Origin: an uncultured Pseudomonadota bacterium | Lineage (GTDB): Bacteria; Oederibacteriota; Muellerivitia; Muellerivitales; Muellerivitaceae | NCBI GenBank assembly: GCA_963843375.1 | Contig: CAWJKT010000019.1 | Location: 1-36,853, forward strand | Reading direction: 5' to 3' | Length of the DNA stretch: 36,853 bases | Shown here: piece by piece, positions 12,266 to 27,011 of the stretch | How positions within the stretch are numbered: the first letter of the stretch is position 1 | Layout: each line of letters opens with the position of its first letter | The notes under the pieces: generated by a model | Seen by the model: only the letters and a program-made list of their open reading frames with translations | Told to the model about the DNA's origin: nothing | The model's database searches: none | Position numbers and translations under genes: made by a program

Positions 12266-13894
12266 TTACTCTTTCACCTGATCCAACAGTTTGTAGGACT
12301 TGAGTTTCCGGTAGAGCGTTGCAACACCCATTCCCATCAAATCTGCAGCCTTTCTCCGGTTACCTTTGGTTTTTTCCAGTGCGCCCAAAATGCAATCCTT
12401 CTCTACGTCCCTTAAAAATCGGGGTACCCCTTTATCGGAAACCAGGGTTGCCACTTGGCGCACCTCAGGGGGAAGGTCTTCCAGGTCAACGCGGTTCGTC
12501 CTAGCCACCGCGACCGCTCGTTCCATTGCGTTTGCAAGTTCCCGGACGTTGCCGGGCCAAGAGTAACCCAGCAGTTGGTCCAACGTTGGGGTGGTCAATC
12601 CGTCTATGGGCTTTTTCATCTGGATTGAAGCTTCCGCCAAAAGCATCCGGGCGAGAGGAAGGATGTCCTCCCGACGGTTACGCAGGGGCGGAACGACTAG
12701 TTCAACGACATTCAGTCGGTAATAAAGGTCCTCCCGGAACCTTTTTTCCGTCACTTCGGCCTTTAGATTCTTGTTGGTCGCGCTGAGGATGCGCACGTTG
12801 ACCGCCCGGGTTTTGTTCTCGCCAACGCGCCGTACTTCCTTCTCCTGCAGAGCCCGAAGAAGTTTCACCTGCATGGGAAGATTGATTTCACCAACCTCAT
12901 CCAGGAAAAGCGTCCCGCCGTTGGCCGCCTCGAAAAGCCCCGGGCGGTCCACCGTTGCTCCGGTGAAGGAACCGCGGGCGTGGCCGAAAAGTTCGCTTTC
13001 CAGCAGGGTCTCGGTGATAGCCCCACAGTTCACCGCAATGAAGGGTCCCGCCGAACGAGGGGAATGATCGTGTACGAAACGCGCTACCCGTTCCTTTCCT
13101 GTACCGCTTTCGCCCGTAATCAATATCGTGGAATCGATCGCGGCGATGGTCTTGGCCAGTTCCATCAATTTGCGCATCTCGGGGCTTCGCGCCATGAGGT
13201 CCGACGGGTCTTCCTCAATCTTGGCGATAACCGCCAACTTTCGTGTTCTTTCCTGCAATTCGCTTTCGGTGCGCTTTAGTTTGGTAGTCACGTCCCTCAA
13301 GGCTTCGTCTATCCCGGCTCGCTTGAAAACCGCCAATTCACCGTCCGCCTCCTCGCCCCATTCTTCCTCGCTTTTGATCATCACGTGGCAGGCCGTATCC
13401 CCCTTTCCCATGCACTTGTCCTCCAGCGCGTACATTTTCTTGTCCAAGGAGAAACTCAGGTAACCGCTGATGAACCCGCAAAGGTCCCAGCAAACGGGCT
13501 TGTCCGAGCGGCCGTTCAAAAGGAGATGCTGCTCGGCTTCATAGGAAACCCGCCAGTTTCCACCCTCCGGGCCGAAAGCCTCGGGGTGGTTGGGGTCCAG
13601 CATACAAAGTCCCTGGAGGGCCAGTATCCGTGCCCCGGCCCTTCGCCAGTCCTCTTCACTATCCCATTTAAACTTGGATTTCAGGGCGGTAGCCATGCGC
13701 CTCCCGTGGATATAGCCGAAGCGGCTGAGGATGCCCCTGGCCGTCCTTTCGCCGAGGCTGTCGATCAATTCCTTTCGATGAAGACCGTGAGATACGGTAT
13801 CGCAGATCATGGCTCTCTCGCCGGCAAAGCGAACCTCTCCTTTCTTGGGATTTAATTCTAAAAGTTCTTTTAAGTCGAGGTCTTCTACTCGCAT
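12266..13894 (-). CDS. sigma54-dependent enhancer-binding protein, XylR_N/V4R-AAA+-Fis HTH architecture
   Basis: XylR_N/V4R-like N-terminus (PVCW..CGFISGY, EDKCMGKGDTAC), GESGTGKE, ESELFGH.RGSFTGA, FLDEVGE, FREDLYYRLNV, WPGNVREL, C-terminal ATLYRKLK. Confidence 0.95.
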   Translation of the reverse strand: MRVEDLDLKELLELNPKKGEVRFAGERAMICDTVSHGLHRKELIDSLGERTARGILSRFGYIHGRRMATALKSKFKWDSEEDWRRAGARILALQGLCMLDPNHPEAFGPEGGNWRVSYEAEQHLLLNGRSDKPVCWDLCGFISGYLSFSLDKKMYALEDKCMGKGDTACHVMIKSEEEWGEEADGELAVFKRAGIDEALRDVTTKLKRTESELQERTRKLAVIAKIEEDPSDLMARSPEMRKLMELAKTIAAIDSTILITGESGTGKERVARFVHDHSPRSAGPFIAVNCGAITETLLESELFGHARGSFTGATVDRPGLFEAANGGTLFLDEVGEINLPMQVKLLRALQEKEVRRVGENKTRAVNVRILSATNKNLKAEVTEKRFREDLYYRLNVVELVVPPLRNRREDILPLARMLLAEASIQMKKPIDGLTTPTLDQLLGYSWPGNVRELANAMERAVAVARTNRVDLEDLPPEVRQVATLVSDKGVPRFLRDVEKDCILGALEKTKGNRRKAADLMGMGVATLYRKLKSYKLLDQVKE

Positions 13895-16874: not shown

Positions 16875-16890
16875 AGCAAATACTGTGCCC
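16875..16890 (-). promoter_or_regulatory. sigma54 -24/-12 promoter for ice-binding protein/OmpA
   Basis: GGGCACAGTATTTGCT, exact GG-N10-GC spacing, 106 nt before the ATG. Confidence 0.8.
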
Positions 16891-17282
16891 TTCCGGAAAC
16901 CCCATTTTTCTCGGTTTTCGCGGCATCTCCCCTATCAAAATGAAAAGAAGAAAAGATCAGTCTGATTGAGTTTTGTTTGACGATAATTCCGAGCCTTTTT
17001 CTTTATCGTCCGAAAACCCCTATCAAATTGATCCCGCAGGACAAAAACGGGGAACTTTCAAATTCAGAATTATTTTTCGCGGGAAATGGTCCAGCCTTAT
17101 CTTCACACACCGGAGATCTTCAATATTATTCGTGACTGTTCACAAACATATAAAAAACCATTTTTGGACTTTTTCGGTATCTTGTTAAAACCTGGTCATC
17201 CAAAAACTTAACGAGGAGAAGGATTGAACAGTTGGAGTAATCGATATTTTTTGTCCACGACGGAGACCAGTCGTGGACGGGA

Positions 17283-19110: not shown

Positions 19111-19638
19111 TCAAACCGCAGCTTTGGCCGGGAGGGGATTGAAGTTCATGAATTTGTTCACTTCCGCTTCCAACATCATGTTATTGGATTTGAGTTCTTT
19201 GTTGTTGCTTTGGAGTTGGTCAATCATCTTTCGCATGTCTTCCGAATGCCGATAGAGATCGATCAAAATGGACACCTTTGCCCGCAGCACCGATGGGCTG
19301 AAGGGCTTCAGCAGATAGTCGATCCCCCCCACATCGTAGGCCCGAATCTTATCCTTCTCGCTCTCCTGAGCCGCCGTTAAAAAAATGATGGGTGTCTTGC
19401 GGTGAATGTCGCACTGGCTGATCGCGATCGCCGTTTCAAAACCGTCCATCTCAGGCATCCGCACGTCCAATAGAATGACAGCAAAATCCTCGCGGGTGAA
19501 TTTTTCCAGGGCCTCTCTTCCCGAACGCGCCATCACCAAGTTGAGGTTCATGACTTCCAACACGGCCTCCAAGACCATCAAGTTGGCGGGCTTGTCATCC
19601 ACTAAAAGAAGATTGACGGGTGTTTCTTTTTGGATCAT
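19111..19638 (-). CDS. Response regulator receiver protein with C-terminal coiled coil
   Basis: LLVDDKPANL, LLDVRMPEMDGFE, PIIFLTA, DYLLKPF. Confidence 0.93.
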   Translation of the reverse strand: MIQKETPVNLLLVDDKPANLMVLEAVLEVMNLNLVMARSGREALEKFTREDFAVILLDVRMPEMDGFETAIAISQCDIHRKTPIIFLTAAQESEKDKIRAYDVGGIDYLLKPFSPSVLRAKVSILIDLYRHSEDMRKMIDQLQSNNKELKSNNMMLEAEVNKFMNFNPLPAKAAV

Positions 19639-19726
19639 GACTGGTCTCCTTTGAATTCAAGGGGTAAGGCGATCGGGGATGGAGTTAAGGCTGGCGTCCC
19701 GCTTGGGGCTGTGGAATCGGAGAAGA

Positions 19727-20083
19727 TCACTTGTTGAATTTCCCCCTTAACTTCAAGTTTAGGCTTTTAAGTTCTTCGATGTTACATTTGATTTGGTCGA
19801 TCAGTTTTCGCGTTTCTTCGACAAGTTGAGGAAGGGTCACGTGACAACGGGGATTGCGCCCGAGTATGGTGACCGCGGTTTCAACAACTTCCATCTTCAT
19901 TAATCCGCACGTGCTTGCGGGTGATGGCAAAACCCTCGCACATGAAACGGCGTAAGGTTTCTTCGCCAGAACACCTATTCAGCATTTTTAGACCCCTGCT
20001 TTCCAAAAAGACTTCAAGGTCCGATCGATGGGCGGGTCTGTCGTCTGCCAAAAGAATGTTCGAGGTTTTTTTATTTATTTCAT
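19727..20083 (-). pseudogene. Decayed tandem paralog of the adjacent receiver protein
   Basis: Fragments NILLADDRPAH..SGEETLRRFMCEGFAI / METAVTI-like / RKLIDQIKCNIEELKS align with 19111-19638. Early stop, frameshift and internal deletion. Confidence 0.7.
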
Positions 20084-20414
20084 GGCCTGTCTCCTATATG
20101 TTCAACGGGGATGGCCTTAGGCCCCCTGTAGCCCGGGATATTCTTTAAATCTTGAAACTTTCCAAGGTTTTAGCCCTCAACCGTCCGCGTCTTTCGGGGA
20201 ATGATCGAGGGCTTCCCTTCAACGAAAAATTAAGATCAGTACAACGATCAATATCACAAGTCCTATTCCGCCTCCAATATACATAACGCCTCCTTTTACT
20301 TTTTCAACCTACTCTTGTTTCCAAACACCCGCACTTCGCGGACCTGGTTAAAATCTTTTTCGGAAGGGTATTGATCATTCTCTTCTTTTTTAGCCGGGCA
20401 TCGGATAAATCTTT

Positions 20415-21593
20415 TTAACCGCCAACCCCCGCGGGAGCCATCATTTCCAACACGGCTCTATTTTCATCATGCCGCACGAATCTGCCGATATGAGCGGTGT
20501 GTTTCAAAGGCTCGGAGGATCCCCGGATGGACAGGGTCACTTCATTGGCTTCCGGATTGGGTATGTTAAACTCCTTGGCCGCCCAGGCCAGGATCTTCCG
20601 AACCGTGGTCGAGGGCGAGAAGTGGGTTTGATGCTCATGGCCATTGAAATGGACCACCACCCCAATCTTTTTCTGCGTGTGAACGTGATGGATCTTATGG
20701 CGAGGGTGTTTTGCCTCCACCCGGTGATTCGGATTTAAGGGAATATCTTCGTTTTCCAAAAAAAGGTGAGCTTCAGTCGCGGGAAAATTTCCGATCTGAG
20801 CCACGGAGACGATGATTTCCTGGAAGGTGGCCCCGGGTTTAATCGCTACCTTGACCATCCCGGCCAATCCGGCACCTTCTACCAAAATTTCTTCCTGAGC
20901 CAATAAGGCAGCTTGCGCCTTGGCCGCTTCAGCCGCCAATTGGGCCTCTTTCGCCAAACGCTCTTGATCCGCTAATCGAACTGTTTTGGCAGTGGCTTCC
21001 TCGGTCCATTTGGCATCGTTTCCTAAAATCACTTCATCAGTCAAAAGGGCCCATTGCGCCGAATTCTCTTCCTCATTCGATCCGGCCGCTTTTGCGGCCG
21101 CTTCTTCACGAGCCAATTTGGCGCTGTTGGCTAAAGTCGTTTTATCCCTTTGGTAACGGGCTCGAACCATCTGCGCCAACAGGAGAAGCAGAAGAAGCCA
21201 GAGAAGGAGCCAGGGCCAGCCATACGTGCCCCCCATAAAACTTTGGGGAAAATGGGCCGCCACTGGAGGCAATGGCTGGGAAATGGCTGGGGGCGCCGCC
21301 ACCGACGCCGCTAAAACCACCGGGAGGGCCTGAACGGCGGTCCAACCGGCGGAATGGGAAGCGATTGAGGGTTTTTCGGTTGCCTTATCAGCCGGTGGAG
21401 CGGCCGAGGCGGCTGGAACGACCTCGTTGGTTTCCGGTGCCGCAGTCGGCTCAGGATTGAGGACCGATTCGGGCGCCTTTGAACTCCGGATGTCGCTGCC
21501 AACGCAGGAGGTAAAAAACAAAGCACAAGAGCCAAGAAGAAAAACAATAAGGATGGAAGAAAAGGGATGTTTCAAGAGCGCCTCCTCAGACAT
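20415..21593 (-). CDS. Membrane-anchored tandem ubiquitin-like protein (lipoprotein signal, Pro/Ala linker, TM, coiled coil, BilA-like Ubl ending VGG)
   Basis: FFTSC lipobox-like motif (Cys30), WPWLLLWLLLLLLL TM. The last ~160 aa align along their length with 24102-24608 and end PAGVGG*. Confidence 0.85.
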   Translation of the reverse strand: MSEEALLKHPFSSILIVFLLGSCALFFTSCVGSDIRSSKAPESVLNPEPTAAPETNEVVPAASAAPPADKATEKPSIASHSAGWTAVQALPVVLAASVAAPPAISQPLPPVAAHFPQSFMGGTYGWPWLLLWLLLLLLLAQMVRARYQRDKTTLANSAKLAREEAAAKAAGSNEEENSAQWALLTDEVILGNDAKWTEEATAKTVRLADQERLAKEAQLAAEAAKAQAALLAQEEILVEGAGLAGMVKVAIKPGATFQEIIVSVAQIGNFPATEAHLFLENEDIPLNPNHRVEAKHPRHKIHHVHTQKKIGVVVHFNGHEHQTHFSPSTTVRKILAWAAKEFNIPNPEANEVTLSIRGSSEPLKHTAHIGRFVRHDENRAVLEMMAPAGVGG

Positions 21594-21676
21594 TGCGGTG
21601 GGTTCTTGCGGAGAGCGCCTTATGATCGGTCGCCCCCCACAGAACCATCGAGAGAATCATTTCTTAAGCTTTTAAA

Positions 21677-21692
21677 AGCAAGGGACGTGCCA
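21677..21692 (-). promoter_or_regulatory. sigma54 -24/-12 promoter of the membrane Ubl gene
   Basis: TGGCACGTCCCTTGCT, a perfect match to TGGCAC-N5-TTGC. Confidence 0.9.
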
Positions 21693-21800
21693 TTGTCCGG
21701 GAACCTCTTTCTATACCTTCAAAACGATTTCTTCAAAATAGCGACTATCAATAAAATAATTAATTATCAAAGTGGGAGACCGTGAGTTTGTTTGAGGTCA

Positions 21801-23141
21801 TCACCACGTCATTGATTCCGAATAGCCCAAGTTTTTCACTTTTAACGACTTATCGAAGTGGGTTCGGATTTCGGGAAATTCCATCGTTGAGCCGGTCAGG
21901 GTCCGAAAGGGCGGTTCCAGCGAGGCCAACCGAATCGCTTGGGTGATCACCAACGTGCTGGTGAAGACACTCACGAAGGGAACCGCCACGTTCGCCCCGG
22001 CGATTTCGGCAATCCCGCACTCCTCCTCGGGGTACTTTCGCGCCTCCTCCCGGTAGGAACGGAGGGCCTTATTCGCCTCAATTCTTTGGTTTTCCCCCGC
22101 CCCGTCATCCTTTAGGATGTCCTCGGGCCTGAAGTTTTCGTCAAAAACATTCACCCGGTAAAGATGGTAGCTGTCGGCCCTGTTCCCCAGTCCCGCGTCG
22201 ATCACATAATCGAAATTGGCTTTTCCCAGAAGTCTGCGGGTCGCTGCGTTATCCAGCCCTGAGAGGACCATTGAAGGCTCGAAATTCCTGCGCCGGGTGT
22301 TTTCGTCGAAAGGCCGGTCGTTGCGGGTCACCTTAAAGCCCATACGGAGGGCCCAGTCCTCCATGATTTTGCTTTTGCGCGCGCCCACGTCGTCATGCCC
22401 TGTCAGGACAGAAGTTCCGCAATTGGAAGGCTGAACAAAGTCGAAATCCTGGAGCAAAAGCTCGACCTCTTGGGGTTCCTTGAACGGAAGCAATCCCAGG
22501 GTCCAAAGATAGGCTTGGCCCAAATTCCCCAGGCCCAAGGCCCAAAGAGATTTGGGCAGGTAAACTTGTTTCTTCTCGGGGTTAGAATTTTGAACCGGAT
22601 CCCAGATGGAAACAGTGGAGGATTTCCGTCCGGCCCTGGGATCTCCCAAGGCGCGTTTAAAGGCTTCCGAAACCGCCAGGGACCCCGCTGCGATGCCCGC
22701 CAGGACGTTGGAACCGACTCCTAATGGCTGGCTATCATCGATAGGACGAAGACCGACTTTCCATCCGTCCCACCAGGGTTTTACCGACCAGCCCGTCCAA
22801 CCAGTTTGTGAATAGCCAATCACGATCGAGTAATCGGCCTTCACAGCCTTCTTGGCACCCAACGCGGCCGCGGCTTCCCCCACCGTTTGGTGGGGAGGCA
22901 AAGAAAGAATCAGTTTTTCGTGGACCGCTCCAGTCAGGCAAACGCCTCCCCGGAAACTGCGCACCCCTGTCACCACCGCGGTCAAGGCGGCGGCCTGAGC
23001 GGCGGGCTGGGCCGAATCCGACACGCTCAAGTGCACTTCAAGAGTTAATTGGTTGAAAAATACTTGGCCTTCCTCCAGGCCGCCCAAGCCGCTTTCCGGG
23101 TAAAGTTTGAGAAGCCGGGTCGTTTCAGGGTCGATATTCAT
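21801..23141 (-). CDS. bilD: E1-like (ThiF/HesA-family) activating enzyme, BilD-like
   Basis: GLGNLG, QDFD..SN, GLDN..TRR, DAGLG, candidate catalytic ECG..AG..VAVPFVS (Cys codon 22017-22019), extra N-terminal domain. Start ATG 23141 abuts the JAB stop. Confidence 0.88.
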   Translation of the reverse strand: MNIDPETTRLLKLYPESGLGGLEEGQVFFNQLTLEVHLSVSDSAQPAAQAAALTAVVTGVRSFRGGVCLTGAVHEKLILSLPPHQTVGEAAAALGAKKAVKADYSIVIGYSQTGWTGWSVKPWWDGWKVGLRPIDDSQPLGVGSNVLAGIAAGSLAVSEAFKRALGDPRAGRKSSTVSIWDPVQNSNPEKKQVYLPKSLWALGLGNLGQAYLWTLGLLPFKEPQEVELLLQDFDFVQPSNCGTSVLTGHDDVGARKSKIMEDWALRMGFKVTRNDRPFDENTRRRNFEPSMVLSGLDNAATRRLLGKANFDYVIDAGLGNRADSYHLYRVNVFDENFRPEDILKDDGAGENQRIEANKALRSYREEARKYPEEECGIAEIAGANVAVPFVSVFTSTLVITQAIRLASLEPPFRTLTGSTMEFPEIRTHFDKSLKVKNLGYSESMTW

Positions 23142-23142
23142 G

Positions 23143-23658
23143 TTAGGAGGGGTCCAATCGGAAATAGCGGGGACCTTCCAGTGAATGGTCGGTCCAATGG
23201 TGGTTGCCCTGGTACTCATAGAGACCGATGTGTCCGGGTAGAACGTTGTTGAGAGCGTAATGGGAAAGGATGACCGCCAAGTGCCCCGCCAGGGGCATCA
23301 TGGGATGTTCCCGATCGGACGGGCTTTGCCCGAAACCAAGGGCATGCACATGAACGTCCGCGACAACTTCCAAACCCTCGTCCCGGCATATGTTCCAAAG
23401 CGATCCATATTGGCCACCGTCGAATTCCACGATTCCTCTGTCAAAACAGTGTGGGTCTAAGTCGTCGTAATAGACGAACCGGAGGATTCGCCGGGTTTTC
23501 GCTTCCTTTTTGCCGAGCAAGAATGCCCCGCTCTCCCGGGCGTTCCCTGTACGGCGCTGAAGTTCGCGGGCTCCCCTATCCCAAAGGCTTTTCGCGCAAG
23601 CCAACCCGGGGGAAGATTCAGCGATTTTCGGATGGAATGTGGCGGTTGAGCCGTTCAT
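23143..23658 (-). CDS. bilC: JAB/JAMM metalloprotease (deubiquitinase-like), BilC-like
   Basis: RESGAFLLG and DVHVH..QSPSD (E..HxH..SxxD). ATG 23658 follows GGAGG and overlaps the E2 end. Confidence 0.9.
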   Translation of the reverse strand: MNGSTATFHPKIAESSPGLACAKSLWDRGARELQRRTGNARESGAFLLGKKEAKTRRILRFVYYDDLDPHCFDRGIVEFDGGQYGSLWNICRDEGLEVVADVHVHALGFGQSPSDREHPMMPLAGHLAVILSHYALNNVLPGHIGLYEYQGNHHWTDHSLEGPRYFRLDPS

Positions 23659-24100
23659 AAATGTCCTCCAACACAAAAGTTAAATCCCGGTCGGGGCGCC
23701 AAGCCAAATAAGGATGTTTGTTTTGGGCGTCTAAGTGCGGACCCGCTTCTTTTTCCCATGGTCGGTAAACGTGGCTTTCCTGCCAGGGCTTGAAGGGATC
23801 GAACATTTCCCGGGTTCCGTCGGAATTTTTTTTTCGAGGCCTGTTTTCTTCCCGGATTTCCCTGTCCGAATCCATCTCCCAAAGCTGGCAGGAGGGCGCC
23901 TGTCCTGGGTAGCGGTTCAAGCCGAACTTGAACCGGAACCAGATGGGAGTTCCATTGCCTTCGCCAGCATTTACCAGTATGAATAAAATGGGAAATTCGA
24001 AGGACTGGAGTCGCCAAAAACCCCTGCGGATTCCGGCTCGGAACGCAACGGAGTCCAAATCCCGTTCCACCCAATCCAGAGCAGGGTCCTGGATCGGCAT
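23618..24100 (-). CDS. bilB: E2-like conjugating-fold protein, BilB-like
   Basis: Lies between Ubl and JAB; FRAG..RG.W, YPGQAP (E2 YPxxPP-like), HP..AW.P..LTFVLEDIYERLN. Confidence 0.75.
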   Translation of the reverse strand: MPIQDPALDWVERDLDSVAFRAGIRRGFWRLQSFEFPILFILVNAGEGNGTPIWFRFKFGLNRYPGQAPSCQLWEMDSDREIREENRPRKKNSDGTREMFDPFKPWQESHVYRPWEKEAGPHLDAQNKHPYLAWRPDRDLTFVLEDIYERLNRHIPSENR

Positions 24101-24101
24101 T

Positions 24102-24608
24102 TTACCCGTTCACTTTCGCAGGGGTAATCACGTCCAACTCCAATGTGTGGCGGTCATGCGCCACGAAACGGCCGATATGGGCGTTTCCGCTCAAAGGAAC
24201 GGAGGAGCCGTGAAGGGCCAGGTATAATTCCGTCGCATCCTGCTCGGGAATGTTGAACTCATGATTCGCCCAGCCCATGACTTTCTTGACGGTGGCCGCA
24301 GGCGAGAAATGCATTTTGTGTTCCTGGCCGTTGAAGAACACCCCCACATTGATTTCCTTCTGCGTGTGGACGTGATGGACCTTGTGGCGCGGGTGCTTCG
24401 CTTCCAGGACATGGGTTGGGTTCAGGGGAACCGCTTCGTTTTCCAAAAAGAGGTAAGCTTTTTCCGGGGAAAAGTTCCCGGCCCGGGCCACGGCCACGAT
24501 GATTTCCTGCAGCTTGGCTCCGGTTTTCACTTTCACTTCGATCACCTCGGTCATTCCGGGACCTTCCACTAAAATCACTTCATCCAACTCCGTCGTTTCG
24601 TTTCGCAT
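24102..24608 (-). CDS. bilA: Tandem ubiquitin-like (ISG15-like) protein, BilA-like, ending KVNG
   Basis: First gene of the Ubl-E2-JAB-E1 operon; FSPAATVKKVMGWA, HIGRFV, C-terminal Gly. ATG 24608 after AAGGA, downstream of a sigma54 promoter. Confidence 0.85.
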   Translation of the reverse strand: MRNETTELDEVILVEGPGMTEVIEVKVKTGAKLQEIIVAVARAGNFSPEKAYLFLENEAVPLNPTHVLEAKHPRHKVHHVHTQKEINVGVFFNGQEHKMHFSPAATVKKVMGWANHEFNIPEQDATELYLALHGSSVPLSGNAHIGRFVAHDRHTLELDVITPAKVNG

Positions 24609-24659
24609 GAGGGTTCCTTCTTTCTCTAAATCTAAAATGATGGACAAGAGCAAGGTTAA

Positions 24660-24675
24660 AGCAACTATCGTGCCC
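24660..24675 (-). promoter_or_regulatory. sigma54 -24/-12 promoter of the Ubl-E2-JAB-E1 operon
   Basis: GGGCACGATAGTTGCT, GG-N10-GC. Confidence 0.85.
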
Positions 24676-24907
24676 CACCCCGCCCGGAAGGAACGGCGCC
24701 GAAATCACTGGCAGGCGAAGGAAAATCTTTTTTCGGGGTTCAAAAAAGGAAGCCTGAGGGCGGAAGTGGCAAAATGATTCGAGGGACTATCAATTTGATT
24801 TCAACGGAGTCATTACCTTCTCCGGAGGACGTCTCAAAAAATTCCTATAGGATTTTTCTGGCGACTTGTTCAAACTCGCAACTGCCGACTAGTTTAAAAT
24901 CCGTTTT

Positions 24908-25135
24908 TCATTGCCCCGTGTGGGGCGGAGGTGAAACCTGCTTCGCCCCCCACTTGGCGGTTCCGCTGACCTCTCGGACAGGCTTGGTCCTCTTAGGATG
25001 GCGGCCGAAGGTATGACCCTTTTCGTGTAATCGAATCCACTCGGCCTTTCCATTTTCCTGGCCGGACTGCGCCGGGACCATGGTCCCCGCCGTAGCCGTG
25101 AAGAGGATGACCGCAGCTAAAAGTATTTTTTTCAT
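24908..25135 (-). CDS. Small secreted hypothetical protein (75 aa)
   Basis: AAGGAG RBS; MKKILLAAVILFTATAG signal peptide; basic tail. Confidence 0.65.
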   Translation of the reverse strand: MKKILLAAVILFTATAGTMVPAQSGQENGKAEWIRLHEKGHTFGRHPKRTKPVREVSGTAKWGAKQVSPPPHTGQ

Positions 25136-25226
25136 GGTCCTAACTCCTTATGTTGGGTTTGGGGTAACTTCCCGCTCCCTTGCTTCTTGGCCTGCCTTGC
25201 CAACGATCCCCCCGATTGGATCAATT

Positions 25227-26366
25227 CTAATCGGTCACGACGCAACCCGCGTTATCGAGCTCCATGATTTCAACTGGCACGTCCGGGTTCGTCAGGGGGT
25301 TACCTGGAACGTAGATTTCGCATTGGTGAGTCCCCAACCCCGAATTATTCACCAAGGATTGCAAATCTTGAATTTGGTTTGCGTCCAGATCCAATTCCGA
25401 CAGATTCGGCAACCCGGACAGGGCGGCGATGTTGATGACCTGGTTGGTGGTGACCTCCAGGAAAACCAATTTCGTCAATCCGGACAACGCCGTTAGGTCG
25501 TTAATCGCGTTGAACGAAATGTCTAGGTTTATCAAATTCGTCAACCCAGAAAGAGCAGCGATATTGCTGATTTGGTTGCCCGAGATGTCCAAGGCGTTTA
25601 ATTGTGTCATTCCGGTCAGGCCCGTGATATCGCTGATTTGGTTGTTACCGATTGAAAACGAATAAATACCTGTCAGGGCGGCTAGATCGGGCAAGGTCGT
25701 GATCTGGTTATAATCAAGTTGCAGGGAGGTGAGGGCGGTGAGATTTGTCACCGGCGACAGGTCGCTGACCTGCCCCGTAAAGATGCTCAGCGAGAGCAGC
25801 TGCGTCATCCTGGACAAAGCCGTGATGTCGCTAAAGGGGTTGTCATCAAGTATCAAGCTGTTCAATTGTGTCAATCCGGCTAGATCGGTGATATCACCGA
25901 TCTGGTTTATACCGAGATCCAAAACCTTTAAACCAGTGAGACCGGAAATGGACCCGGGGTTGGTGATTTTGTTTCCCGACAGGTTCAGGCCAGTCATGCT
26001 AGTGCAATATTCCAGGCCCGTCAGGTCAACGATGTTGTCGGAAATGGCGGTCAAGTTGACGAGGGTGGCCATATCACACGAGGTGATAGTGTCCGAGGCG
26101 CTTGAAATGATCCCGTTACTGATCAATACGCTTTGAACTGCGGCCAATAGGTTGGGGTCAGGGATATTCACCACCCCCGAAGGACAAGTAACGGTGGGTG
26201 TCGCGGAGTTATTGCCCGTCGGGGTTGGCGAACGAGGAGGGGTTGAAACCGGAATATTGTTTGGCGCCGCGGCGCCTGTTGGGCTGACGATTTGGGAAGG
26301 GCAACCGATGGATAATAATGCGATTCCAATTAAAAGGGAAAAAACCCCTGCGATTCGAAGTTTCAT
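25227..26366 (-). CDS. Internalin-like leucine-rich-repeat lipoprotein
   Basis: Lipobox SIGC, PT linker, IPDPNL cap, about 11 22-aa LxxLxLxxNQIxDLxxL repeats. Confidence 0.92.
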   Translation of the reverse strand: MKLRIAGVFSLLIGIALLSIGCPSQIVSPTGAAAPNNIPVSTPPRSPTPTGNNSATPTVTCPSGVVNIPDPNLLAAVQSVLISNGIISSASDTITSCDMATLVNLTAISDNIVDLTGLEYCTSMTGLNLSGNKITNPGSISGLTGLKVLDLGINQIGDITDLAGLTQLNSLILDDNPFSDITALSRMTQLLSLSIFTGQVSDLSPVTNLTALTSLQLDYNQITTLPDLAALTGIYSFSIGNNQISDITGLTGMTQLNALDISGNQISNIAALSGLTNLINLDISFNAINDLTALSGLTKLVFLEVTTNQVINIAALSGLPNLSELDLDANQIQDLQSLVNNSGLGTHQCEIYVPGNPLTNPDVPVEIMELDNAGCVVTD

Positions 26367-27011
26367 TGTGAGGCCTCCAACGGAATTTAAAACTCTTGGC
26401 CAAACAATGTCTGGGAAAATGTTTTAGTTTAAAGACCTTAGGCGCTCCCACGGATTATAGATATAGGTAAAAAAAATTAAACGACTGAAAACCCAAAAGT
26501 GAAATAATAAAAAATAATTCTCGATCGTGGGTCGTCGAATTATCAATGTGATTCAAATTTGTTTTTGAATCACGGGGTCAACCCCGCCTCGATTAAAAAA
26601 TCTACGTTTCACTTTTGGCTAAAGGCGTGCTTGAGAAGCGAATAAAAGCTATCGGGTTGTCCATTCCGAGTCTCCGCGACGCTTTTAAAACGATTCCAGG
26701 CTGCGCGAATACATAAAAGGCTTCACGGCCCGGACAAGGTTTTTCTCTTCGGTTTACTCCATTGCGTTCTTTGCCCGACTATCAATTCGAGAGACATTTT
26801 CGTGGGGCGTTTAAAAAACGAAATAGTTCCGAATATTCGAATTTATTTTTCCAATCAAAAGTATAATTAAAGGATCAAGTGGTTTTTTCTCGGATCGATG
26901 TCCTCGGAAAATGTCTCTCCGGAGTTCGCGCCAAAATTTTTTCCCATTTGTTCAACCGAATCGGGCCCGCGTTTCACCGAACCCAAAAACGCTCTAACGG
27001 AGGCGAAAGTA

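Follow-up and report, generated by a model that had tools for sequence, protein, structure and literature searches.

A five-gene Bil variant with a cysteine-less E2 and candidate sigma-54 promoters in an uncultured Pseudomonadota bacterium

When an operon for ubiquitin-like conjugation lies away from other defence genes and appears to be read from sigma-54 promoters, does it still serve immunity, or has it been taken over by another part of the cell's physiology? The question is raised by a 36,853-nt stretch of DNA from an uncultured Pseudomonadota bacterium (GenBank assembly GCA_963843375.1, contig CAWJKT010000019.1, positions 1 to 36,853), which we call the window and in whose positions all coordinates are given. 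It carries a complete set of bilABCD genes for a ubiquitin-like protein (Ubl; BilA), an E2 (BilB), a JAB-type peptidase (BilC) and an E1 (BilD), a combination that in Type I Bil systems protects against phage and conjugates the Ubl to a phage tail protein. An earlier note, made from the sequence alone, had assumed a standard E1-E2 cascade, induced by a signal through sigma-54, and had suggested that it may be repurposed for envelope or stress physiology. Our analysis leads to a partly different reading. The locus is most likely a regulatory and architectural variant of Bil, apparently wired into an envelope-related sigma-54 regulon, and we give a probability of about 0.55 to its being a five-gene system that is still directed against phage and whose transcription has been rewired from control by CapH and CapP to control by sigma-54.

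The four core genes are readily recognised. Gene identities were taken from PADLOC models and domain names from Pfam, and the homologue set comprised 80 fetched loci (designated by L numbers, the window locus being WIN), with alignments of 75 BilB, 77 BilC and 83 BilD sequences. Four minus-strand open reading frames (ORFs) at 24653/24608-24102, 24100-23618, 23676/23658-23143 and 23219/23141-21801, with alternative starts separated by a slash, overlap or abut one another. Each matches its PADLOC model (Table 1), which confirms the claim of four coupled genes in BilABCD order; the Pfam matches of the same proteins are weak or generic (TUG-UBL1, DUF7665, Prok-JAB and ThiF). The order Ubl-E2-JAB-E1 is identical in every fetched locus that has all four genes. 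Columns at least 95% conserved hold the JAMM residues of BilC (E48, H109, H111, S118 and D121), the loop G203-L-G-N-L-G208 and Cys375 of BilD, and the last residue of BilA, Gly168. In the available parts of two preprints on Type I systems, the corresponding Collimonas E1 residues are given as G219 in the adenylation loop and C385 as the catalytic cysteine (10.1101/2022.05.11.491447; 10.1101/2023.09.04.556158), and by alignment and context Cys375 would be the equivalent of C385. As for gene starts, we place that of bilD at 23141 because the database form of the protein has 446 aa; bilC is likely to begin at the ATG at 23658, its ORF opening at a TTG (23676), and in L004 and L006 the bilC ORF is shorter, with 173 aa, its first residue being the aligned Met. 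With the usual spacing from the promoter described below, transcription of the operon would begin downstream of the TTG at 24653, which leaves that codon outside the transcript and makes the ATG at 24608 the probable start of bilA. GC content across the locus is unremarkable.

Downstream of bilD lies a fifth gene, here 'bilA2', whose product combines a lipoprotein-type signal, a Pro/Ala-rich linker, a transmembrane helix, a coiled coil and a double beta-grasp ending ...GVGG. Hydropathy marks hydrophobic segments at residues ~9-32 and 125-143, the second of them followed by R-A-R-Y-Q-R-D-K, and the AlphaFold2 (AF2) model, with a mean predicted local distance difference test score (pLDDT) of 66.9, has a signal helix, then disorder from 27 to 122, followed by long helices (125-188 and 195-230) and by two beta-grasp domains, modelled with confidence, that occupy 234-305 and 310-385. 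The predicted topology has the lipidated N-terminus outside and the Ubl part in the cytoplasm. The Ubl part and BilA have 58% identity across 159 aa, in a match that runs to the very last residue, the C-terminal Gly, and it is through this identity to a modelled double beta-grasp that BilA itself is predicted to be a double Ubl. A search of 5.8 billion proteins, restricted to lengths of 215-686 aa, recovered a family of 14 proteins that share a lipobox-like T/S-S-C-A, a Pro-rich stretch, W-P-W-L-L-L-L, the BilA module, and heptad-like repeats that are rich in Lys/Arg/Ala/His and differ greatly in length; in three members the coiled coil is absent and the beta-grasp units number three. The window copy ends in Gly-Gly, and x-Gly, or a Gly near the end, is found in 4 of 13 aligned members. 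Of the loci whose length would reveal a second BilA ORF, only the window, L002 and L006 showed one. A membrane-anchored Ubl is absent from the available texts of Hör et al., Chambers et al. and Gong et al. and from the other literature searched, although their supplementary tables could list such proteins. The nearest parallel is the description by Gong et al. (2024, PMC11601603), as far as the available text goes, of Bil/Bub Ubls with N-terminal coiled coils or other domains that are thought to drive oligomerisation; in that text the words 'membrane' and 'transmembrane' do not occur. Those extended Ubls are soluble and are the only Ubl of their operon, whereas the protein encoded here would be a second, separately promoted Ubl with a lipoprotein signal and a transmembrane helix.

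The earlier note had described the active sites as intact. This holds for the JAMM motif of BilC and for the GxGxxG loop and Cys375 of BilD, but fails for BilB, in which Trp115 replaces the catalytic cysteine. In the alignment Trp115 occupies the column of Cys113 of Collimonas rhizosphaerae BilB (L073), which lies within Y-I-P-C-D-R; the window protein is ungapped there (V-Y-R-P-W-E-K), and the position is flanked by the invariant Tyr112, Pro114 and His122. Across the 75 BilB sequences from fetched loci, the column holds Trp in 37, Cys in 36, and Ala or Val in 2. A quick maximum-likelihood tree built from 74 BilD sequences has a branch with 100% support that sets the 36 Trp-type rows, drawn from many phyla, apart on one side, and across that split the window BilD is 30% identical to the BilD of C. 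rhizosphaerae. By these comparisons the window operon is placed in a deep Cys-less sister clade of Bil. Within the clade, 40 BilB columns are at least 85% conserved and no Cys, Ser, Thr or Lys is conserved; five Trp-type ORFs in the sample contain no Cys at all. Cys71, the only Cys of the window BilB, was considered as a relocated catalytic residue but is unlikely to serve as one, the position being Cys in 7 of 75 sequences and mostly Ala or Val.

In the wider family, a profile search of 1.84 billion representatives returned 489 BilB proteins. Among the best 150 of the 489, of which 129 are alignable at the motif, the catalytic column holds Cys in 52, Trp in 21, Phe and Tyr in 14 each, Val, Leu, Met and Ile in 6 each, and Thr, His, Gly and a gap in 1 each, which leaves 77 of the 129 without Cys there; His122 is present in 120. 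Some representatives are longer, at ~300-350 aa, with the BilB domain in the C-terminal half (e.g. P0291, P0303, P0304 and P0310), and may be fusions with an N-terminal part of other identity, perhaps a Ubl. The AF2 model of the window BilB (pLDDT 80) has as its best Foldseek matches 8tz0/8tyz, the E2 of a bacterial E1-E2-Ubl complex, followed by eukaryotic E2s, at probabilities of ~1.0 yet with weak E-values of 3e-3 or more; the BilB profile, searched by sequence against solved structures, matched nothing at E 1 or better, the E2 matches coming through the fold search only. On the strength of the model, BilB would be an E2/UBC fold minus its catalytic cysteine and, in that sense, like a ubiquitin E2 variant (UEV), with no claim of homology to the eukaryotic UEVs. 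UEV proteins such as Mms2/Uev1 and Tsg101 have the E2 fold without the nucleophile and act as adaptors or binding modules; they need an active E2 partner, whereas none is encoded at the window operon. Although the genes are homologous to those of Bil, a Trp at the catalytic column means that the E2 thioester step as described cannot be used.

What, then, surrounds Trp-type operons elsewhere? CapH and CapP are, according to the available part of a 2022 preprint, a DNA-damage-responsive regulator pair of immune operons. PADLOC was applied to 150 of 272 neighbour ORFs, which come from 17 of the 30 Trp-type loci; in 12 of these 17, which do not include the window, capP adjoins bilA, often together with CapH and an SbcB-like exonuclease, and PD-T4-7, DrmD, Drt9, AbiE, HmaA and PD-Lambda-2 also lie nearby. 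By local phmmer, CapP-like ORFs are present in 18 of 37 Trp-type loci versus 0 of 36 Cys-type loci, and none was found in the window, L002, L004, L006 or L007. The absence of CapP from these loci, taken with the sigma-54 sites described below, suggests that the window's sub-clade has exchanged CapH/CapP control for sigma-54 promoters. In L009, L031 and L044 a divergent trio beside bilA consists, by PADLOC, of a CapH-like helix-turn-helix (HTH) protein, a short CapP-like peptidase and a ~470-aa SbcB/DEDDh-type exonuclease, and the same trio is recognisable by size and position in L016, L020, L030, L037, L041, L045, L048 and L068; to our knowledge the exonuclease is not part of the CapH/CapP pair.

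The distribution of the operon is patchy. Of 30 further genomes from the family, 3 yielded a BilD; none was found in the congeneric genome, which is 99% complete, or in 30 genomes from the phylum's other families. The genes flanking Bil also differ between the window and L002/L006, and this patchiness fits an accessory, mobile module. In one genome of the same family (G010), BilD is 50% identical and neither a fifth gene nor a sigma-54 site was found in the 2.4 kb after bilD, up to the contig end. Two metagenome-assembled genomes (MAGs) labelled Opitutia and Methylocystaceae (L029 and L030), apparently from one sampling project, carry identical BilD and give identical phmmer scores for BilA, BilB and BilC, which points to recent transfer or a binning error.

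Evidence for the regulatory half of our reading comes from two sites of the sigma-54 -24/-12 type, P1 and P2, found with the pattern TGGCACGNNNNTTGCW in consensus scans that are admittedly crude. P1 stands 52 nt before the ATG of bilA and bears out the site that the earlier note had noticed there; P2 stands 84 nt before the ATG of the fifth gene, within the 207-nt gap that separates it from bilD. At no more than one mismatch the window contains these 2 matches against 0.17 expected, a number reached in 2 of 100 shuffles. The window's own genome (G000, 4.05 Mb) contains 4 perfect and 25 one-mismatch sites, and P1 and P2 are among the 11 of these 29 that fall in the ~14% of its sequence to which a crude gene call assigned no gene. 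A scan of the window and its relatives, with GG and GC fixed and up to two mismatches allowed, covered 85 stretches (1.97 Mb, both strands counted) and yielded only 6 perfect sites. Every one of them is P2, at its place downstream of bilD, and the loci that hold it are the window, L002, L003, L005, L006 and L007. The close relatives (L002-L005 are metagenome contigs, L006 and L007 MAGs) have BilD 82-86% identical to the window's, and because L005 and L006 are nearly the same sequence the six P2 loci represent ~5 lineages. Around the invariant core of P2 the intergenic sequences have drifted apart and contain insertions as long as ~650 nt. In L005 and L006 the ~650-nt insertion lies between bilD and P2 and carries an 86-aa ORF on the opposite strand, the promoter core being unchanged; in L003 a 62-aa ORF right after bilD (1698-1886) encodes a diverged second version of the last ~35 residues of BilD, the 3' end of the gene having been duplicated in tandem over a short length ahead of the P2 site.

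The P1 region is likewise kept in L002 and L006, as GGGCATGATCCTTGCT plus an upstream block. In these two loci, however, it is separated from bilA by a small ORF and by two genes, one for a secreted protein of 266 aa and one for a small lipoprotein. A further P1-like cassette, on contig C11 of G000, precedes a homologue of the 266-aa secreted protein. Across the four copies of the cassette (WIN, L002, L006 and G000 C11) the conserved islands are the upstream block and GGGCA.GAT..TTGCT.TAA, with GG-N10-GC and TTGCT.TAA invariant, and the rest has diverged. At greater distance the picture changes: in 76 loci with a BilA match, a site no more than 400 nt upstream of the BilA domain occurs only in the window (one mismatch) and in L071 (two mismatches), and the P1-type promoter is absent from ~70 distant Bil loci in a scan allowing up to two mismatches. 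A survey of homologous neighbourhoods, as the earlier note had proposed, shows the close clade keeping the sigma-54 sites and distant members lacking the motif and sitting beside CapH/CapP regulators and defence genes. A crude scan for sigma-70-like promoters found none on the minus strand and two plus-strand sites at chance level. Rfam gave no match at E 0.1 or better within 19500-26500, and no terminator-like site was seen between bilD and P2 or 3' of the fifth gene. The genome has an intact rpoN (509 aa; PF00309, PF04963 and PF04552).

Sigma-54 promoters depend on activators, and candidate binding sites lie upstream of both P1 and P2. Two sequences above P1 had been described as paired palindromes; the one at 24788-24800 is a true palindrome (ATCAAATTGAT), and the one at 24767-24779 proved to be a conserved, non-palindromic block (AATCATTTTGCCA). 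The half-site above P2 has a 10-mer in common with the P1 element, and a TTGAT-rich related sequence is kept at its position in 6 loci. The 13-mer ATCAAWTTGATAG occurs 3 times in the genome against ~0.24 expected: one copy is that above P1, a second starts 142 nt upstream of a sigma-54-like GGGCACAGTATTTGCT, and the third is on contig C9, ~130 nt ahead of the ATG of a gene for a paralogous activator. With the looser ATCAWWTTGATAG the genome has 6 sites against ~0.5 expected, two of which pair up before a gene cluster on C11. In a related genome (G001) the element again precedes an activator gene as well as the Bil cassette; its pattern has 4 sites there, the reversed control 0. The second copy of the 13-mer belongs to a promoter that precedes genes for ice-binding-like and OmpA-like proteins (16769-15720 and 15699-14599), upstream of the window's activator gene (13894-12266), and that looks like a second member of the same regulon. 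The activator is one of three XylR_N-V4R-AAA+-HTH paralogues (window, C9 and C4), which are 72-85% identical and have nearly the same HTH/recognition helix; PF00158 has 13 matches in the genome, 9 of them at E 1e-42 or better, and 9-10 of the activator matches count as strong. One or more of the three paralogues would drive P1 and P2. With two well-placed and conserved sites, an intact rpoN, activators at hand and a shared upstream element, the claim that the operon is controlled by sigma-54 together with an enhancer-binding protein is well supported as far as sequence can take it. The sigma-54 stress operons psp/PspF and rtc/RtcR, in which a -24/-12 promoter and an activator site give tight signal-dependent induction, are alike in having a -24/-12 promoter and an upstream sequence that in the window is a candidate activator site, and unlike in that the window's candidates carry XylR_N-V4R sensor domains. 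Our literature search found no link between sigma-54 and Bil, other Ubl systems or anti-phage defence.

The upstream element could alternatively be a site for integration host factor (IHF), or another type of site; the IHF consensus is WATCAANNNNTTR, and the fit of the ATCAA-rich element to it is not exact. A search of 20300-25300 for direct and inverted repeats gave weak families only, the shared 10-mer having come from inspection and pattern search. A third window copy of ATTGATAGTC, at 26777-26786 on the minus strand, lies in the gap between genes for a leucine-rich-repeat (LRR) lipoprotein and a pirin-like protein, with no sigma-54-like site within 300 nt after it. The C11 cluster (L095, G000 C11:378300-382600) has its two ATCAWWTTGATAG sites on opposite strands, 20 nt apart and ~350 nt before the gene for a 365-aa protein, which matches a 377-aa protein of L006; this cluster may consist of envelope or secreted-protein genes under the same control. 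On C9 (L086, G000 C9:31000-39000) the element-bearing activator gene adjoins a phage-type integrase gene (182-1291) and an addiction-module antidote gene (2216-2554), and may lie at the edge of a mobile element.

Table 1. Genes, putative promoters and candidate regulatory sequences of the Bil locus, in window coordinates
Feature	Position	Strand	Description
bilA	24102..24608	-	168-aa double ubiquitin-like protein (predicted), C-terminus ...VNG; PADLOC BilA, E-value 4.2e-34
bilB	23618..24100	-	E2-fold (predicted), Trp115 at catalytic position; PADLOC BilB 2.4e-35, Pfam DUF7665 6e-18
bilC	23143..23658	-	JAB/JAMM peptidase, intact E...HxH...S..D; PADLOC BilC 2.1e-61
bilD	21801..23141	-	446-aa E1, nucleotide loop GLGNLG, Cys375; PADLOC BilD 1.4e-119
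Fifth gene ('bilA2')	20415..21593	-	392 aa; PADLOC BilA 2.6e-33 on residues 235-383
P1	24660..24675	-	Sigma-54-type -24/-12 site GGGCACGATAGTTGCT, one mismatch to TGGCACGNNNNTTGCW; predicted transcription start ~24649
P2	21677..21692	-	Perfect sigma-54-type site TGGCACGTCCCTTGCT; predicted transcription start ~21666
Upstream element ATCAAATTGATAG	24787..24799	-	Palindromic core; starts 124 nt upstream of P1 site start
Second conserved upstream block GAATCATTTTGCCAC	24766..24780	-	Non-palindromic; (nearly) invariant in WIN, L002, L006 and G000 C11
Half-site ATTGATAGTC	21743..21752	-	Starts 60 nt upstream of P2 site start; 10-mer common with P1 element
Candidate co-regulated promoter	16875..17032	-	Element ATCAATTTGATAG (17020-17032), half-site TTTTGATAGGGG, GGGCACAGTATTTGCT (16875-16890)
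Enhancer-binding protein	12266..13894	-	XylR_N-V4R-AAA+-HTH (Pfam); candidate activator of P1 and P2

The surroundings of the operon in the window are of another kind. Among the 30 other ORFs, Pfam recognised a Y-family polymerase, a GH94 phosphorylase, LemA, PEBP and TPM proteins, the XylR-type sigma-54 activator, OmpA-like, ice-binding-like, VTT and PqiA proteins, a response regulator, the LRR lipoprotein, pirin, DUF4403 and NHL proteins and a resistance-nodulation-division (RND) pump. None of the 30 has a specific PADLOC defence match, the generic matches being those of the AAA+ part of the activator to RtcR/PspF models and of the OmpA-like protein to ZorB, and Pfam found no integrase or transposase among them. 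The earlier observation that no defence gene, integrase or transposase lies nearby therefore stands.

How far can the characterised systems serve as a guide? With Type I BilABCD of Collimonas sp. OK412 the window shares the order Ubl-E2-JAB-E1, a two-Ubl BilA ending in Gly, the E1 adenylation loop and catalytic Cys, the JAMM peptidase, and matches to all four PADLOC models. It differs in the extra membrane-anchored BilA paralogue, the sigma-54-type promoters, the lack of defence neighbours, the position of its BilD in the sister clade and the Trp of BilB; the C113A exchange in the Collimonas E2 abolishes defence according to Hör et al. (10.1101/2023.09.04.556158). With Type II BilABCD (CEHH/6C, Ensifer aridi TW10) it shares the gene order, a BilB model closest to the 8tz0/8tyz chains of that system, and the histidine beside the active site (His122), but the Ubl of Type II consists of one beta-grasp only and its E2 has the catalytic Cys138, where the window has a double Ubl and no Cys at that position. 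The available text of Chambers et al. (10.1101/2023.09.26.559546) states that a subset of Type II operons is regulated by CapH/CapP, which these have in common with the window's Trp-type relatives, and that Types I and II alike show high conservation of the E2 Cys and of one His; the conservation of Cys does not extend to the Trp-type clade. All three Paraburkholderia loci in our sample (L017, L033 and L034) are Trp-type, and Paraburkholderia, Cupriavidus and Thiomonas operons were tested by Millman et al. (10.1101/2022.05.11.491447).

In the mechanism that we propose, one of the three XylR_N-V4R activators would bind ATCAAWTTGATAG on a signal, possibly a small molecule or a state of the envelope, and would open sigma-54 RNA polymerase at P1 and P2. 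BilD would adenylate BilA and form a thioester at Cys375, BilB without its nucleophile would act as a non-catalytic E2-variant adaptor, so that transfer would go from E1 to target, and BilC would trim or remove the tag. E2-independent Ubl conjugation by the E1 alone is familiar from the archaeal SAMP/UbaA system. Through the fifth protein a second Ubl module would come to lie at the inner membrane, on its cytoplasmic side, where the anchored Ubl might recruit the enzymes or, if it ends in Gly as in the window, be linked to targets and tether them to the membrane. A more ambitious version, in which this is a Ubl system free of any E2 thioester, is distinctly unlikely; in it a XylR-type activator would sense the signal, and the E1 would join free BilA, the Gly-Gly terminus of the lipidated, anchored paralogue, or both, to incoming phage or envelope proteins and so pin them covalently to the inner membrane. 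It would be a bacterial counterpart of membrane-tethered Ubl conjugation such as Atg8 lipidation, reached from the opposite direction.

Several points weigh against the preferred reading of a sigma-54-controlled, still anti-phage Bil variant. The window has no defence gene within ~12-20 kb of the Bil locus, and its cassette appears to be regulated together with genes for secreted and envelope proteins, an arrangement just as compatible with a role outside defence. The literature searched yielded no verifiable anti-phage test of the Trp-type clade, Table S2 of Millman et al. aside, and with a Cys-less E2 the Collimonas mechanism is not simply transferable. A C-terminal Gly in only 4 of 13 members of the fifth-protein family implies that conjugation is not the general function of the anchored Ubl. 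On the regulatory side, the mismatch of P1 sits at -26, and one-mismatch sites are near chance genome-wide, with 25 seen versus ~30 expected by our own arithmetic, so that P1 is weak taken alone and draws its weight from position and conservation. The element before the activator gene could also serve another purpose.

The same neighbourhood could mean that the operon has been repurposed, as the earlier note had suggested, and that it now modifies or organises host envelope or stress proteins within a sigma-54 regulon and no longer acts against phage. The element and promoter type before bilA also stand before the ice-binding-like and OmpA-like genes and the C11 gene for the 266-aa secreted protein, a pair of element sites precedes the 365-aa ORF of C11, and in L002 and L006 the secreted-protein and lipoprotein genes between P1 and bilA apparently form one transcription unit with the operon; the extra Ubl is membrane-anchored, with a lipidated end that would span the periplasm, and the window lacks defence neighbours. 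Against this, Trp-type operons in the wider clade lie in defence surroundings and next to CapH/CapP, the operon occurs sporadically among close relatives and in varied genomic places, which suits accessory immunity better than core envelope physiology, and no result suggests a host target. Distant clade members without the motif beside CapH/CapP, and BilD in so few genomes of the family, leave the repurposing claim unsupported, and although it is the chief rival to defence we place it on the unlikely side; defence remains likelier because the distant members of the clade sit with CapH/CapP and defence genes and because the module is patchy. A narrower alternative concerns the fifth protein, which might be a decoy, a brake or a docking site that binds BilD, BilC or BilB at the membrane and thereby controls the place or time at which free BilA is used, and not a conjugatable tag. 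Its close identity to BilA would suit this role, as would the variable length of its coiled coil, in proteins of 392 to 679 aa, which befits a spacer or scaffold, and the C-termini of the family, since beside the 4 of 13 with x-Gly four members end right after ...RV and others with TV, NA, TKN or TKV; a substantial non-covalent E1-Ubl interface is, moreover, reported in the available text of Hör et al. (10.1101/2023.09.04.556158). On the other hand, the window copy ends in Gly-Gly, three relatives keep x-Gly or a Gly near the end, and some database proteins may be truncated gene calls, so we regard this role as a tentative option, possible but doubtful.

Two further alternatives would undo the reading at its base. 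If the sigma-54 matches were non-functional, the operon would be read from ordinary promoters or by read-through from upstream, where the LRR lipoprotein gene lies on the same strand, and both the near-chance rate of one-mismatch matches and the crudeness of consensus scans allow for this. Yet two sites fall in one 3-kb locus when the genome has 29 in 4.05 Mb, both are in non-coding DNA at the right distance and in the right orientation, their cores are kept while the flanks diverge and take up insertions, and the minus strand has no sigma-70-like site, all of which makes such an outcome very unlikely. The replacement by Trp115 of a cysteine that is essential in Collimonas might also mark the operon as a decaying, inactive remnant of Bil. 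A remnant would hardly be expected to keep four intact genes, to share 40 well-conserved BilB columns with its clade, or to form one side of a fully supported branch that holds 36 of 74 BilD rows and spans many phyla, and the family at large, in the best 150 of 489, combines frequent lack of the Cys with a retained His122; we consider decay extremely improbable.

Nowhere in bacteria does ISG15/ubiquitin immunity have a clearer counterpart than in the Bil systems, and what is found here bears on both their chemistry and their control. With 77 of the 129 alignable BilB proteins (among the best 150 of 489) lacking the cysteine, the accepted E1-to-E2-to-target scheme cannot describe most of the family. 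The membrane-anchored Ubl paralogue, an architecture new to the Bil/Bub literature that we searched, points to the inner membrane as a site of action. The regulation of Bil would be modular, one enzyme core being placed under CapH/CapP in most of the clade and under a sigma-54 activator here, and the locus offers a testable case of an immune-type operon that appears to be wired to a small-molecule or envelope signal instead of to DNA damage.

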